Shown here: positions 23,752 to 47,389 of the stretch, piece after piece | Layout of the letters: each line of letters opens with the position of its first letter | How positions within the stretch are numbered: the stretch's first letter is position 1 | Notes under the pieces: generated by a model | What the model was told of the DNA's origin: nothing | Seen by the model: only the letters and a program-made list of their open reading frames with translations | The model's database searches: none | Source of the DNA: Deltaproteobacteria bacterium | GTDB lineage: Bacteria > Myxococcota > B64-G9 | Length of the DNA: 64,000 nucleotides | Direction: 5' to 3' | Assembly: GCA_016935365.1 (NCBI GenBank) | Contig: JAFGRB010000138.1 | Location: 712-64,711 of the forward strand | Made by a program: the position numbers and the translations under genes

Positions 23752-24234
23752 ATGGTCAGTCCTCAGATGGTGATGTACGAGGAGGAGTACAACCAGATCA
23801 GCGCGATCTGCGATCGGCTCTACCGGGAAGCGAATGCCAAGGTCGTCTTCCTGGTCGACAAGAACGGGCAGCTGATCGCGAGCGCGGGCGAGGTGGAGAA
23901 CATCGACACCACCTCCCTGGCCTCCTTGACCGCGGGCAACATCGCGGCGACCGGCGGGTTGGCCAAGTTGATCGGAGAGAAGGAGTTCTCCATCCTTTTC
24001 CACGAAGGAGAGCGGGACAACCTGCACATCTCCATCGTGGCGGGCCGCGTGATCCTGGTCGTGATCTTCGACAACCGCTCATCGCTCGGGCTGGTCCGGC
24101 TTCGGGTCAAGAAGACGACGCACGATCTGACCCAGATCTTCGACAATCTGCTGCGCAAGATCGAGGACCCAGCCGCCGGTTCTCCCTTCGCGGAGATCAC
24201 CGACGAGGACATCGACAACCTGTTCAGCGACTAA
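23752..24234 (+). CDS. mglB: MglB roadblock/LC7 GTPase-activating protein
   Basis: ANAKVVFLVDKNGQLIA, DTTSLASLTAGNIAATGGLAKLIGE, SSLGLVRLR and the myxobacterial C-terminal helix SPFAEITDEDIDNLFSD. Confidence 0.97.
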   Translation: MVSPQMVMYEEEYNQISAICDRLYREANAKVVFLVDKNGQLIASAGEVENIDTTSLASLTAGNIAATGGLAKLIGEKEFSILFHEGERDNLHISIVAGRVILVVIFDNRSSLGLVRLRVKKTTHDLTQIFDNLLRKIEDPAAGSPFAEITDEDIDNLFSD

Positions 24235-24255
24235 GTGGGGCTCGAGGGCGAGATC

Positions 24256-24843
24256 ATGTCCTTCATCAACTACTCTTCTCGCGAGATCAACTGCAAGATT
24301 GTCTATTACGGCCCCGGCCTGTGCGGCAAGACGACCAACCTCCAGTACATCTACGCCAAGACGAATCCGGAGGCCAAGGGCAAGATGATCTCCCTGGCCA
24401 CCGAGACAGAGCGGACCCTGTTTTTCGATTTCCTTCCCCTGAGCCTGGGCGAGATCCGGGGCTTCAAGACCCGCTTCCACCTCTACACGGTCCCCGGCCA
24501 GGTCTTCTACGACGCCAGCCGCAAGCTGATCCTCAAGGGCGTCGACGGTGTGGTCTTCGTGGCCGACTCGCAGCTCGAGCGCATGGAGGCCAACCTCGAG
24601 AGCATGGAGAATCTCAAGGTCAACCTCGCCGAGCAGGGCTACGACCTCAACCAGATCCCATACGTCGTCCAGTACAACAAGCGCGATCTGCCCAACGCCG
24701 CCTCGGTCGAGGAGCTGAGCCGGCTGCTCAACCCGGGCAAGGTGCCGGAGTTCCAGTCCATCGCCTCGACGGGCTGGGGGGTCTTCGACACCCTCAAGGC
24801 CATCGCCAAGCTCGTTCTGCAAGAGCTGAAAAAGGGCCGCTGA
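24256..24843 (+). CDS. mglA: MglA small Ras-like GTPase
   Basis: [55 protein letters not shown]. Confidence 0.98.
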
Positions 24844-24870
24844 AAGCCCCCGGAACGCCCGCTAAAAGCG

Positions 24871-24900
24871 TTGACAGGCAGGGAAGAATCTGGGCTAACT
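24871..24900 (+). promoter_or_regulatory. Possible internal promoter downstream of mglA
   Basis: TTGACA at 24871; only a weak -10 candidate (CTAACT at N18). Confidence 0.3.
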
Positions 24901-44635: not shown

Positions 44636-44656
44636 CACGCGGAGTGCTTTACCGAG

Positions 44657-45271
44657 GTGCCAAGCGTGGAATCGAGGCGCTTCAAGCTGGCCTGCTGTGC
44701 GATCCTGCTCTGCCTGGCCCCGGCGTGCTGGTGGAACAGCCCGCATGCGACGCCCGAGGTGGCCAAGCCGAGGTACGTGCCCGCCTCCACCCTGGGGCCG
44801 GGTGACGTGTTCGAGGTCAAGGTCTATGACGAGAAGGAGCTGAGCGGCATCTACCGGGTCTCGTCGGCCGGCAGCATCCAGTTCCCGCTCATCGGGATGA
44901 TCGATCTGAACGGCCTGACGAGCTCGGACGCCGCGGTGAAGATCCGCGACAAGCTGGCGGAGAAGTACCTGCGCAACCCCCAGGTCAGCATCTTCATCCG
45001 CGAGTACAACTCCAAGAAGATCTCGGTTTTCGGCCAGGTCACCAAGCCCGGCACCTTCCAGTACGAGGACGGCCTGACCGTCATCCAGGCCGTCAGCATG
45101 GCCGGCGGCTTCACCAAGATGGCCGCCAAGAACGACACCAACGTCACCCGCATCGTGGACGGCGCGGAGAAGAGGTTTTCGATCCCGGTCGAAGCCATCG
45201 CCCAGAGCAGGGCCAAGAACTTCTACCTCGAGCCGGGCGATATCGTGTATGTGCCAGAGAGCATCTGGTAG
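44657..45271 (+). CDS. wza: Short OPX polysaccharide export protein lacking a C-terminal OM helix
   Basis: Poly_export LGPGDVFEVKVY..G.IQFPLIG, YLRNPQVS; SLBB VFGQVTKPG..AGGF; ends LEPGDIVYVPESIW; possible lipobox LAPAC. Confidence 0.92.
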   Translation: MPSVESRRFKLACCAILLCLAPACWWNSPHATPEVAKPRYVPASTLGPGDVFEVKVYDEKELSGIYRVSSAGSIQFPLIGMIDLNGLTSSDAAVKIRDKLAEKYLRNPQVSIFIREYNSKKISVFGQVTKPGTFQYEDGLTVIQAVSMAGGFTKMAAKNDTNVTRIVDGAEKRFSIPVEAIAQSRAKNFYLEPGDIVYVPESIW

Positions 45272-46355
45272 ATCGACGATCCGGCTCGCCCGCCCCAGCC
45301 TCGGCCCGGCCGAGGAGGAGGCCTGCCTGCGCGTGCTGCGCTCCGGTCGCCTGGTCCAGGGGGCGGAAGGCGAGGCCTTCGAGGCCGAATTCGCCCAGCG
45401 GGTCGGGGCGGCCCACGCGATCGCGGTCTCCTCGGGCACGGCCGCCTTGCAGCTCGCGCTCATGGCCCTGACGATCGGTGCGGGGGACGAGGTGGTGGTC
45501 CCGGCCTACACCTTCATCGCCACCGCCAATGCAGTGACCTCGACGGGCGCCCAAGTCGTGCTCGCGGACGTGGAGGACGAGACGCTCAACATGGATCCGC
45601 GCTCGCTCGATCAGGTCATGCAGGCGGGAGAGCGGATCCGCGCCGTGCTGCCGGTGCACCAGTATGGCCTGCCGGCGGACGTCTCGGCCCTGGCCGCCGT
45701 GGCTAGGGAGGCCTATCTGGTCGAGGATGCAGCCTGTGCGGCCGGAGCGGAGCTCGGCGATGAGCCGGTGGGCCGGCCTCGCGGCCTGCTGGCTTGCTTC
45801 AGCTTCCACCCGCGCAAGGTGCTCACGACCGGCGAAGGGGGCCTGATCACGACCTCCGACGCCGGCCTGGCCTGCAGGCTGCGCGCGCTGCGGCAGCACG
45901 GCCTGAGCGGCGAAGCGCCGGTCGAGCCGGGCTATAACTTCCGGATGAGCGAGCTGGCGGCCGCTATCGGCAGGGCGCAGCTCGCGCGGCTGGATGCGAT
46001 GCTGGCGACGCGCCGCCGCCTGGCGATGCGGTACTTCGATGGGCTTGCCGGGCTCGACTGCTTGCAGCTGCCGCCGCGCGCCGGGCACATCTTCCAGTCT
46101 TTCGTCGTGCGCCTGCGGCCCGATTCCCCCCTCGAGCGCGAGGCGCTCATGGCCGAGCTGGCCCGGGAGGGCATCGAGACCCAGGCCGGCGTGGAGCCCA
46201 TCCACTTCCACGCGCCGTACAGGCACGTGCGCCGGGTCGCGCTTCCGGTCTCCGAGCGCGCGGGCCGCAGCGCGGTCTTCCTGCCCATGCACGCCGAGAT
46301 GGAAGAGGCGGACGTGGAGCGGATCTGCGCCGTGATACGGAGGCTCGATTCATGA
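45249..46355 (+). CDS. DegT/DnrJ/EryC1/StrS PLP-dependent sugar aminotransferase
   Basis: VSSGTAAL, GDEVVVPAYTFIATANAV, VEDAACA, SFHPRKVLTTGEGG, GYNFRMSE. Confidence 0.93.
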   Translation: MCQRASGRSTIRLARPSLGPAEEEACLRVLRSGRLVQGAEGEAFEAEFAQRVGAAHAIAVSSGTAALQLALMALTIGAGDEVVVPAYTFIATANAVTSTGAQVVLADVEDETLNMDPRSLDQVMQAGERIRAVLPVHQYGLPADVSALAAVAREAYLVEDAACAAGAELGDEPVGRPRGLLACFSFHPRKVLTTGEGGLITTSDAGLACRLRALRQHGLSGEAPVEPGYNFRMSELAAAIGRAQLARLDAMLATRRRLAMRYFDGLAGLDCLQLPPRAGHIFQSFVVRLRPDSPLEREALMAELAREGIETQAGVEPIHFHAPYRHVRRVALPVSERAGRSAVFLPMHAEMEEADVERICAVIRRLDS

Positions 46356-47389
46356 GCTACCTCGATCGAGAGATCGCGGATCAACCCGCCGTGCTCGAAC
46401 GCTTGTTTTCGCGCGAGTCCAGGCAGATCGACAGGGCGGTCCAGGAGATCCGCGCCTTCCGCCCGCAGGCGGTCTTCCTGGTCGCCCGGGGCTCCTCGGA
46501 CAACGCGGGCCTCTACGGCAAGTACCTCTTCGGGGCGCGCAACCGCCTCGTGGTGGCGCTGGCCACGCCGTCGCTGTTCACGCTCTACCGCCGCCCGCCC
46601 GATCTGTCCGGCTGCCTCGTGCTCGCCATCTCCCAGTCCGGGCGATCGGACGACCTGGTCGGGGTCGTCGCCGAGGGGCGCAGGCAGGGAGCGTACTGCC
46701 TGGTGCTGACGAACGAGCCGAGAAGCCCGCTGGCCCGTGAGGCGAGCCGGGTGATCGACATGCGGGCCGGGCGGGAGCGCTCGGTGGCCGCCACGAAGAC
46801 CTACACCGCCGAGCTCATGGCCCTGGCGATGCTCAGCGTCGGCCTCGACGGCCGGGCACGGGACCGCGAGGCGCTGGCGCGGATGCCGGAGGCGGTCGCC
46901 GGGACACTGGAGGCCGGAGCGCGGATCGAGGAGCTCGCCGGGCGATATCGTTATGCCGAGCGGCTGGCCGTGATCGGGCGGGGGTACAACTACGCGACCG
47001 CATTCGAGGTCTCGCTCAAGCTCAAGGAGCTCGCCTACCTGACGGCCGAGCCCTCGTCGAGCGCCGACTTCCGCCATGGGCCGATCGCCGTGGTGCAGGA
47101 GGGCTTTCCGGTCCTGTTGATCGCGCCCCGGGGGCGCACGCTCGACGATATGCGCGACCTGGCCCGCGCGCTCGATCAGCGGCGGGCCGAGATCCTGGCC
47201 ATCTCGGACGTCAGTGCGTTGCTGCGCACGGCGCGGACCGCGCTCGCCATCCCGCCCGGCACGCCCGAGTGGCTGAGCCCGCTGCTCGCGGTCCTGCCGG
47301 GCCAGCTGCTCGCCCGCCACCTGGCCGCCGCGCGCGGCTGCCCGCTGGACAGGCCGCGGGGGCTCGCGAAGGTCACCCGGACCCGGTAG
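46352..47389 (+). CDS. SIS-domain protein (GlmS isomerase-like / glucosamine-6-phosphate deaminase type)
   Basis: ARGSSDNA, ISQSGRS, SVAATKTY, LKLKE, FRHGP, LDRPRGLAKVTRT; no glutaminase domain. Confidence 0.9.
   Translation: MSYLDREIADQPAVLERLFSRESRQIDRAVQEIRAFRPQAVFLVARGSSDNAGLYGKYLFGARNRLVVALATPSLFTLYRRPPDLSGCLVLAISQSGRSDDLVGVVAEGRRQGAYCLVLTNEPRSPLAREASRVIDMRAGRERSVAATKTYTAELMALAMLSVGLDGRARDREALARMPEAVAGTLEAGARIEELAGRYRYAERLAVIGRGYNYATAFEVSLKLKELAYLTAEPSSSADFRHGPIAVVQEGFPVLLIAPRGRTLDDMRDLARALDQRRAEILAISDVSALLRTARTALAIPPGTPEWLSPLLAVLPGQLLARHLAAARGCPLDRPRGLAKVTRTR

Follow-up and report, generated by a model that had tools for sequence, protein, structure and literature searches.

In a 64,000-nucleotide stretch of DNA from a member of the Myxococcota (assembly GCA_016935365.1, contig JAFGRB010000138.1, positions 712 to 64,711; hereinafter, the window), 19 consecutive plus-strand genes at positions 23752-47389 bring together the cell polarity pair mglB-mglA, a cluster of paralogs of the Glt gliding proteins with a proton-channel motor embedded in it, and an outer-membrane polysaccharide exporter. 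Judging from similarity searches, gene order and phylogeny, this block is the ortholog of a Myxococcus xanthus super-locus that consists of mglB-mglA, the Glt paralog cluster known as G4, a small helical protein, WzpB and WzaB, and the embedded motor appears to be orthologous to the orphan M. xanthus motor M2 (MXAN_3003-5). We hold the identity and architecture of the block, including the orthology with M2, with high confidence. The locus consists of three evolutionarily separable modules, namely, mglBA, the G4 core, and an exporter that comprises a small secreted protein denoted g15, a Wzp barrel and a Wza protein of the OPX family, and the linkage between these modules is not universal. The 19 genes had been delineated in a first-pass annotation made from the sequence alone, and analysis of the open reading frames, of the G+C content at third codon positions (GC3, 0.83-0.94 in this block, in a window of ~67% GC) and of family matches bears out their coordinates; most of the family names proposed there hold as well, except that the gene described only as encoding TPR repeats is a GltC-like member and that the label GltF-like rests on position and weak similarity.

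The conservation of the block became apparent when we aligned relatives of its GltG-like protein, which yielded 274 relatives in species-representative genomes, and compared the best 80 of these 274 loci together with their 10-kb flanks. All 80 loci are collinear and lie on a single strand, and they include records of Myxococcus, Citreicoccus, Hyalangium, Archangium and Pyxidicoccus, which contain the locus in a motor-less form. The consensus order is mglB, mglA, a gene denoted g3, the GltC-, GltD- and GltE-like genes, a small gene denoted g7, the optional motor genes (ExbB, ExbD, ExbD) and the GltG-like gene, followed by optional coiled-coil, cyclic-nucleotide-binding and FG-GAP genes, then by g15, the barrel and the OPX gene, and finally by the optional pair of DegT and SIS genes. 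Of the 57 loci in which the flank extends to 9.5 kb or more, 52 have the OPX gene downstream; the other five are L026, L051, L062, L063 and L056, the last of which is cut by the end of the locus. On the upstream side, mglA directly adjoins the cluster in 32 of the 37 motor-less loci with enough upstream sequence, and it was present upstream in all five motor-bearing genomes checked, 0.8-1.2 kb beyond the start of the locus. The arrangement in the Myxococcus, Citreicoccus and Hyalangium records also fits the statement in the first-pass annotation that in M. xanthus glt paralogs and the wzaB/wzpB export pair lie near mglBA.

The two genes at the head of the block form the MglA/MglB polarity module. 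MglB (23752-24234), a Roadblock/LC7 GTPase-activating protein of MglA, matches Robl_LC7 with 56 bits and the M. xanthus MglB structures with an E-value of 7.8e-72, and the Ras-like GTPase MglA (24256-24843) matches the M. xanthus MglA structures 6HJH, 6H17 and 5YMX over its full length (E about 7e-110 to 8e-110), so that full-length orthologs of both M. xanthus proteins are encoded side by side. The other MglA-like copies in the source genome are 42-58% identical to the window MglA; three further MglA-like genes were located, two of them ~1.5 kb apart (C368:31889-34532; here and below, C numbers denote contigs of the source genome) and one at C292:32748-33320, and an MglB-like fragment at a contig end (C8:2-283), 71% identical over 94 amino acids, may be a paralog or contamination.

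The G4 core encompasses g3, the GltC-, GltD- and GltE-like genes, g7, the motor, the GltG-like gene and the optional cytoplasmic and FG-GAP genes. Its first gene, g3 (24982-25764), encodes a secreted protein in which a coiled coil is combined with a C-terminal domain rich in beta-structure; this protein matches no Pfam or NCBIfam family and, in the Atlas, only clusters from Myxococcota; g3 precedes the GltC-like gene in all loci with enough upstream sequence, including the loci without mglBA. The GltC-like protein (25761-28169, with the start at 25761 or 25842) combines TPR repeats, detected by TPR families, with a long coiled coil and aligns with positions 100-451 of the GltC model NF033756 (35 bits). 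Next comes a large periplasmic GltD-like TPR protein of ~1130 amino acids (28195-31596), which contains YbgF/BamD-like repeats and is 25-28% identical over ~1000 amino acids to the other GltD-like proteins of the source genome, and then a GltE-like TPR lipoprotein (31593-33311; 97 bits with the GltE model NF033758), in which a cysteine follows a signal-like N-terminus. The latter protein ends in a repetitive charged tail (window positions 32900-33311) that consists of Glu/Ala/Arg/Lys repeats and then of five copies of a 13-residue unit rich in Gly, Lys, Asp and Glu. The GltF/CglF position is occupied by g7 (33395-33643; GC3 0.90), a secreted protein of 82 amino acids that is represented in 76 of the 80 related loci; it resembles GltF/CglF by its location and by weak transitive similarity to small proteins at the equivalent place in paralogous clusters, and showed no match to the CglF model NF033764 at E <= 0.01. 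The larger open reading frame at 33331-33705 does not represent this gene, its frame being the wrong one (GC3 0.39). After the three motor genes, the core continues with the GltG-like transducer (35676-37049), which aligns with positions 208-648 of the 650-position model NF033760 (158 bits), matches NF033768 (the AgmX/PglI C-terminal domain) with 97 bits and a TonB C-terminal family with 27 bits. In this protein, a single transmembrane helix separates a cytoplasmic domain from a long linker rich in Gly and Ala, which leads to the TonB-like C-terminal domain.

Given the common order of the GltC-, GltD-, GltE- and GltG-like genes and the adjacent mglBA, the block could be thought to encode the canonical Agl-Glt gliding machinery of this organism or its Nfs spore-coat counterpart. 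However, no protein of the block reaches the cut-off of a Glt equivalog model: the GltG-like protein attains 158 bits against a cut-off of 650 (594 bits for the copy on contig C133 and 1098 for a Myxococcus copy), the GltC-like protein 35 against 450 (609 for the C133 copy), and the GltE-like protein 97 against 225 (214 for the C133 copy), and the CglF/GltF model NF033764 (cut-off 90) finds nothing in the block and 98 bits on C133. Among the 19 window proteins, there is no match to CglE/GltH, with which the C133 set scores 112 bits, and the GltJ model detects only the shared C-terminal domain (46 bits); GltA, GltB and GltK are not among the names of the matches of the 19 proteins, although whether the library holds these models was not established. 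Thus, none of GltA, GltB, GltH, GltI, GltJ or GltK was recognized in the block and, given that there is no match to GltH/CglE, CglF or full-length GltJ, no outer-membrane barrel other than that of the exporter is recognizable, as the first-pass annotation maintained. The source genome (7.74 Mb in 481 contigs, rated 91% complete with 3% contamination) contains at least eight GltG-like and five GltD-like genes, including a canonical gliding set on C133, a GltD of the Nfs-like type on C63, another motor-bearing cluster on C113 and a further paralog on C301. The canonical set (C133:2756-29149, L155) has GltC directly upstream of GltD and contains two tandem copies of CglF/GltF (100 and 89 amino acids, 60% identical); the C113 cluster (27066-40891, L157) is self-contained, with its own ExbB-ExbD-ExbD, a GltG-like protein of 833 amino acids and GltD- and GltE-like genes, and its GltD groups with the Myxococcus copies denoted G5.

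Phylogenetic analysis of the GltD-like proteins (31 rows and 1114 columns; a quick tree, with support given by the SH-like approximate likelihood-ratio test, SH-aLRT, without bootstrap) places all 21 G4 rows in a single clade with SH-aLRT support of 100; these loci were chosen by the similarity of their GltG to that of G4, and not all of them have mglBA or the exporter adjoining. The paralog labels come from genomes of Myxococcus sp. and Citreicoccus, in which G1 is the GltD that adjoins the GltG scoring 1098 or 1033 bits. G1 (also SH-aLRT 100), the Nfs-like proteins and G5 each form a clade of their own, the C301 paralog is the sister of the G4 clade, and the window protein belongs in one clade with the Myxococcus sp. 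and Citreicoccus copies that are encoded beside mglBA and the Wzp/Wza pair. In one locus (L015:2392-5900), the GltD-like gene consists of two open reading frames of 720 and 456 amino acids, which may reflect a frameshift or an assembly error. With every equivalog cut-off missed and a GltD clade separate from both G1 and the Nfs-like forms, the cluster is neither the gliding nor the spore-coat set, and with the canonical set present on C133, that identity can for all practical purposes be discarded, in agreement with the first-pass annotation. Instead, on the evidence of the profiles and the tree, the cluster is the G4 paralog of Luciano 2011 (PMC3169522), where G4 was left without a function and MXAN_1922 was identified as its gltD homolog (here and below, statements from cited papers pertain to the accessible portions of their text). 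Given that MXAN_1916 is WzpB and MXAN_1915 is WzaB (Islam 2020, PMC7310880; Schwabe 2022, PMC9601211), the 12 genes of the motor-less form, counted back from mglB, fit these tags, so the corresponding M. xanthus stretch would be MXAN_1926-1915, that is, mglB, mglA, MXAN_1924-1917, wzpB and wzaB; the tags were assigned from these papers and by counting genes, and not from the sequence of strain DK1622.

The motor lies between the gene in the GltF position and the GltG-like gene, which makes the machine self-contained, as had been proposed. It consists of an ExbB/TolQ/AglR-type proton channel, corresponding to motor subunit R (33702-34460; MotA_ExbB, PF01618, 78.8 bits), and two ExbD/TolR-type subunits (34531-35121, 44.6 bits with ExbD, PF02472; and 35118-35645, 25.7 bits with the same family, at a cut-off of 25.4). 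As read from the translations, subunit 1 contains an aspartate in the transmembrane segment and subunit 2 has a glycine at the aligned spot, a position that may correspond to that of the protonatable aspartate in the transmembrane helix of TolR and ExbD. Within the synteny set, 22 of 68 loci contain the motor, and its place in the gene order does not vary. In the enlarged ExbB tree (36 rows and 235 columns, obtained with a careful search and rooted on TolQ/ExbB-like genes; a smaller version preceded it), the motors embedded in G4 and a group of orphan triplets comprise one clade with support of 100/99, the AglR-like motors form a separate clade (97/85), and the G5-type motors, such as that of the C113 cluster, form a third (99/97). 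The orphan triplets (~217-266, 172-181 and 193-196 amino acids, with the start of ExbB uncertain in one of them) are the best matches of the window ExbB (41-49% identity) in five genomes with a motor-less G4; in four of the five genomes examined, three Myxococcaceae-type isolates and one metagenome-assembled genome, they are located directly downstream of a gene for a DNA topoisomerase I-like protein (L089-L092). All 11 genomes compared hold exactly one ExbB of the G4/M2 clade, which is embedded in six and orphan in five, and none of the seven further ExbB copies in five motor-bearing genomes belongs to this clade. The source genome itself has an AglR-like gene on C338 and no separate M2-like copy, and its further ExbB/TolQ-type genes fall outside the G4/M2 clade.

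The identity of the orphan triplets was deduced by exclusion. The second-best ExbB matches (35-39% identity) in the four genomes outside the Bradymonadia include, where all three genes are readable, triplets of 245, 161 and 194 amino acids, which are the sizes of AglR, AglQ and AglS (Table 1 of Luciano 2011, PMC3169522), and beyond these, M. xanthus possesses just one more complete Agl set, MXAN_3003-5 (Wartel 2013, PMC3858216). With the other Myxococcus triplet accounted for as AglRQS, the orphans are most likely M2. In M. xanthus, MXAN_3003-5 are dispensable for motility and sporulation, and MXAN_3003 bound neither GltG nor NfsG in a two-hybrid assay (PMC3858216). Given that each of the 11 genomes holds a single motor of this clade, either embedded or orphan, the motor seems to have been relocated and not lost, so M2 is probably the displaced motor of G4. 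Of the two arrangements, the embedded one is probably the older: it is found in several G4 lineages at a constant position, the G5-type motor of the C113 cluster is likewise embedded, and the related core complex outside Myxococcota, discussed below, carries a motor; moreover, the orphans nest among the embedded forms. To this extent, the suggestion in the first-pass annotation that the machine is possibly ancestral gains support. A discordance counts against a simple scenario of this kind, namely, that the orphans comprise one group in the ExbB tree (94/99) and the motor-less G4 loci are scattered in the GltD tree, although long branches may mislead here.

The resemblance of the motor and the TPR proteins to the Tol system raises the possibility that G4 is a Tol-Pal-like envelope system that energizes maintenance or constriction of the outer membrane, perhaps at the pole, without transport of any cargo. 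Indeed, with TIGR02795, a model that covers the TPR of YbgF/CpoB and BamD, the GltC-like protein gains 71 bits and the GltD-like protein 128.6 bits, the ExbB protein scores best on TolQ, and the GltG-like protein has a TolA/TonB layout. However, the family scans detected no Pal or TolB partner in the block, the source genome has further ExbB/TolQ-type genes outside the G4/M2 clade, and Agl-Glt and Agl-Nfs, the closest relatives that have been studied, are machines for transport (PMC3169522, PMC3858216). We consider this explanation improbable.

The third module ends in a porin and its OPX partner. The barrel (43391-44635) matches no family, but an AlphaFold2 model built from 31 sequences features 18 long strands (pLDDT 89.6, pTM 0.82), the nearest folds in the PDB being the OccK/OprD and AlgE barrels (TM ~0.5), and the protein is 22-33% identical to the OPX-adjoining barrel of the Myxococcaceae loci, which makes it a WzpB-like outer-membrane protein. 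The adjacent OPX lipoprotein (44657-45271) resembles WzaB, with an E-value of 1.1e-57 (198 bits) to the crystal structure 9N9A; it consists of a Poly_export domain and one SLBB domain, has no C-terminal membrane helix and is encoded beside an 18-strand barrel, as is characteristic of a Class-3 OPX/porin pair.

How the three modules might work together can be envisaged by analogy with Tol, Agl-Glt and Agl-Nfs. Under this scheme, the proton-driven stator in the inner membrane would act on the GltG-like protein through its transmembrane helix, the linker and the TonB-like domain of this protein would reach a periplasmic scaffold of TPR and accessory proteins (the GltD-, GltE- and GltC-like proteins, g7 and g3) beneath the outer membrane, and MglA/MglB, the coiled-coil protein and the cyclic-nucleotide sensor would provide cytoplasmic inputs. 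In the AlphaFold model of Agl-Glt, the GltG helix and the adjacent domain contact AglR, the C-terminal domain of GltG rests on GltD, and GltC, to which GltF forms a bridge, holds the porins of the outer membrane (PMC11761067). The most likely output would be work on the neighboring Wzp/Wza translocon or on the polymer that it releases: of the proteins encoded nearby, only the GltE-like lipoprotein, the OPX protein and the barrel belong to the outer membrane, and the analogous Agl-Nfs machine transports the spore-coat polysaccharide (Wartel 2013, PMC3858216). Conceivably, the machine would place or move a surface polysaccharide of the biosurfactant polysaccharide (BPS) type in the way Agl-Nfs does with the spore-coat polymer. 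Co-folding of the TPR domain of the GltC-like protein (residues 45-480) with the mature barrel (residues 32-414), using separate alignments, gave a score of 0.00, which weighs neither way. The proposal of the first-pass annotation that the machine secretes or positions polysaccharide, with mechanical coupling to the exporter and control by MglA, is thus argued from analogy, and our estimate for the direct coupling of the G4 machine to the exporter is tentative, somewhat below an even chance. The explanation that combines the identity and architecture of the block with coupling to the exporter is the best overall, and we rate it as evenly poised, which is a compromise between a firm part and a weaker one. 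The broader idea that the ancestral form of the Agl-Glt/Nfs family survives in G4 with its motor (M2 in M. xanthus), as a proton-driven envelope machine under the control of MglA and cyclic nucleotides that would dock on the WzpB/WzaB translocon, or operate next to it, and there place or move a BPS-type polysaccharide at the cell surface, with gliding and spore-coat assembly as later specializations, is more speculative still and, in our estimation, rather unlikely.

In an even sample of the phylum, the linkage of G4 with the exporter is less regular than among the 80 loci. A G4-type GltG (threshold E <= 1e-50) is encoded, nearly always in a single copy, in 283 of 401 Myxococcota genomes from 115 of 154 genera, and a WzaB-like OPX protein (E <= 1e-25) was detected in 94 of 121 genomes. 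The corresponding presence table (both genes in 84 genomes, GltG only in 4, OPX only in 10, neither in 16, and 7 unlisted) indicates co-occurrence but carries little weight because the genomes, being related, do not count as independent cases and because the OPX query may also pick up Class-3 OPX proteins of other kinds. In 46 genomes, the positions of both GltG and OPX were available and were compared by hand; in 8 of these, the contig ends too soon for linkage to be judged. In 26 of the 38 assessable genomes, 13 from the window's own family and 13 distributed over six further families (7 families altogether), the OPX gene is linked, 2-10 kb downstream of GltG on the same strand; thus, the linkage holds in only some two thirds of these 38 genomes. 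In the 12 other genomes, which represent 8 families, the exporter is far away or on another contig, although the available flank would have sufficed to show it. Among ten exporter-unlinked genomes that we examined, the G4 core is intact in all ten, with g3 at its head in all nine with upstream sequence, but mglBA is directly upstream in only three of these nine and not adjacent in the other six, and mglA is likewise not adjacent to G4 in 5 of the 37 motor-less loci mentioned above (L033, L039, L086, L051 and L075). The unlinked exporters are variously preserved: in genome G125, g15, barrel and OPX remain together; in G098, a distance of 8 kb separates g15 and the barrel from OPX; in G044 and G039, a barrel and OPX are close together; and in G093, a barrel is ~9 kb from OPX. 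In G098, the exporter is located amid genes for a GT4 glycosyltransferase, a WecA-type initiating transferase, a Wzy-like protein, a Wzc polysaccharide copolymerase (PCP) of type PCP-2a and a sugar dehydratase, that is, inside a complete Wzx/Wzy cluster, and so has a job of its own; a similar arrangement has been reported for Sandaracinus (Islam 2020, PMC7310880).

Together with several features of the exporter itself, these exceptions speak against direct coupling and are what one would expect if the modules were neighbors by descent only, with mglBA, G4 and the exporter working independently, G4 serving some other cargo or task, for example, movement of the FG-GAP/repeat protein or of a different component of the surface, and the exporter serving a Wzx/Wzy pathway encoded elsewhere. 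The window OPX is the only Poly_export match in the 91%-complete source genome, and the only Wzz/PCP match is found on another contig of 10 kb with no obvious glycan genes, around which no biosynthesis cluster that would feed the OPX was found; with the sole OPX protein and the PCP on separate contigs, the pore must serve general polysaccharide export. Similarly, M. xanthus WzaB works with WzcB and BPS genes located 1 Mb away (Islam 2020, PMC7310880; Mellouk 2026, PMC12819527). In WzaB, the C-terminal Phe-Phe binds the porin and a twin arginine binds the PCP (Mellouk 2026, PMC12819527); the window OPX ends instead in Ile-Trp, an aromatic terminus that differs from Phe-Phe, and has Arg-Asn at the twin-Arg contact for WzcB, according to the alignment with 9N9A, from which the arginine numbering was derived. 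Finally, the motility of M. xanthus was reportedly not appreciably impaired when MXAN_1922 carried a polar insertion or when MXAN_3004 was deleted, at a time when BPS was not known (Luciano 2011, PMC3169522). Nevertheless, the order from the GltG-like gene to g15, Wzp and Wza is kept on the same strand across class-level divergence, including Bradymonadia-labelled records, and persists with four different intervening contents (none; the cyclic-nucleotide-binding gene; coiled-coil and cyclic-nucleotide-binding genes; or these two and the FG-GAP gene), which is more than neutral gene order usually keeps; as for the FG-GAP protein, with its gene in only 21 of the 80 loci, it cannot be the general cargo. 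Descent alone is a plausible explanation, to which we give somewhat less than an even chance and a lower one than to the combined explanation above.

The modular distribution also bears on g15 (42668-43237), the gene that precedes the barrel. According to the AlphaFold2 model (pLDDT ~97 over residues 45-143) and the alignment, its product is a secreted three-helix bundle with two invariant cysteines and a conserved proline-rich tail. A Foldseek comparison with the PDB found nothing below an E-value of 0.001, only generic helical bundles, and the Atlas holds only unnamed or misnamed clusters from Myxococcota. The gene is present in 66 of 71 loci and stays with Wzp and Wza where the exporter is apart from G4; its travelling with the unlinked exporter suggests that g15 belongs to the exporter and not to G4, as a third, previously undescribed component, and in M. 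xanthus it would correspond to MXAN_1917. Homologs of g15 are found beside the Wzp barrel in L127 (the Wzx/Wzy cluster of G098) and in L125 (G125, next to dTDP-rhamnose-type genes). In the accessible portions of the literature searched on OPX/porin systems of the WzaB-WzpB type, there is no mention of a third exporter gene like g15.

The remaining genes of the block are those that vary between loci. Between the GltG-like gene and g15, there are three: g12 (37134-38147; 33 of 80 loci), encoding a cytoplasmic coiled-coil protein with no signal peptide visible in the translation and no family in the profile scans beyond SMC-like coiled-coil noise; a stand-alone cyclic-nucleotide-binding protein (38205-38657; cNMP_binding, 85.4 bits; 49 of 80 loci); and the FG-GAP gene (38788-42609), the product of which is a secreted FG-GAP propeller (FG-GAP_3, 82.7 bits; FG-GAP, 51 bits) followed by eight tandem repeats of ~95 amino acids detected by self-BLAST. 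At the distal end are a DegT-family sugar aminotransferase (45249-46355; PF01041, 324.7 bits), which among the compared loci is present only in those of the window's own clade, and a SIS-domain amino-sugar enzyme resembling the isomerase half of GlmS or NagB-II (46352-47389; SIS, 125.8 bits; NF001484, 237 bits, and NF046059, 219 bits, both under their cut-offs). The gaps between the 19 genes do not exceed ~150 bp, the largest being that between g15 and the barrel, and several genes overlap. No terminator-like site was found in the plus-strand intergenic gaps between 28.5 and 48.4 kb, and two plus-strand promoter-like sites, 5' of g7 and 5' of the FG-GAP gene, are given little weight in a genome of 67% GC. 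The block is bounded by minus-strand genes at 17405-23572 upstream and at 47936-53810 downstream, the latter including genes for ribosomal-protein-like products.

Individually, G4, M2, mglBA and WzpB/WzaB are all known already. In the accessible portions of the literature searched, we found no collinear super-locus, no motor-bearing G4, no M2-motor orthology and no g15, although Figures 1B, 7, S1 and S5 of Luciano 2011 may already show some of these; for MXAN_1917-1924, MXAN_3003-3005 and G4, the search returned only Luciano 2011 and Wartel 2013, and the accessible text of the OPX papers does not mention glt or mglA in this context. G4 has been without an assigned function since 2011 and M2 since 2013, and the window suggests that they are two halves of one machine that would have become split in Myxococcaceae and would still be joined in other lineages. 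This points to a testable pairing (MXAN_3003 with MXAN_1919), to a candidate phenotype (export or placement of a BPS-type polysaccharide), and to candidate regulators (MglA/MglB and the cyclic-nucleotide-binding protein), and it draws attention to g15, which is conserved and would be a third constituent of the Wzp/Wza exporter. Should the coupling prove true, cell polarity, a Tol-like motor and polysaccharide secretion would be linked in one system, with implications for the origin of gliding motility.

Comparison with the known systems puts the window in perspective. Its exporter conforms to the Class-3 OPX/porin translocons WzaB-WzpB, EpsY-EpsX and ExoA-ExoB, in which a short lipoprotein with Poly_export and SLBB domains is encoded beside an 18-strand barrel; compared with WzaB, the window OPX has Ile-Trp in place of the C-terminal Phe-Phe and Arg-Asn in place of the twin arginine, and g15 precedes the barrel. 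A parallel outside Myxococcota is the core complex of aglRQS and gltCDEG that forms a single cluster in Gammaproteobacteria, Geobacter and Fibrobacter (Luciano 2011, PMC3169522): judging by its description, it unites these seven gene families, motor included, and the outer-membrane genes of Group A are missing from it, whereas the window locus, in Myxococcota, adds g3 and g7 and is flanked by mglBA and the OPX/porin pair. Agl-Glt shares with the window the Tol-like stator, the GltG-type transducer and the GltD-, GltE- and GltC-type TPR proteins in the same order, but the window has no recognized outer-membrane module of GltA, GltB, GltH, GltK and CglB, nor GltI and GltJ, its motor is encoded in the cluster, its proteins form a separate clade, and its GltG-like protein, with the profile match starting at position 208, lacks the N-terminal FHA domain of the Agl-Glt GltG. 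Agl-Nfs, in which a Glt paralog works on a polysaccharide outside the cell, provides a functional precedent for the output envisaged here; it borrows AglRQS and has NfsA, NfsB, NfsC and NfsH, whereas the window cluster possesses its own motor, has no A, B or H genes and belongs to another clade. The nearest relative is the M. xanthus G4 with its neighbors, represented by the Myxococcus, Citreicoccus and Hyalangium records, in which the corresponding genes share both order and strand with those of the window and GltD belongs to the same clade; to these, the window adds ExbB-ExbD-ExbD between g7 and the GltG-like gene, the cytoplasmic coiled-coil gene, the FG-GAP/repeat gene and the DegT-SIS pair, four additions that are missing from the Myxococcaceae loci except for the coiled-coil gene, which some Myxococcaceae-labelled records have and those of the named genera do not. 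The M2 motor (MXAN_3003-5), which by our reading of the tree falls in the same clade as the window motor, completes the picture: it is orphaned in M. xanthus, whereas in the window, its counterpart is embedded in G4.

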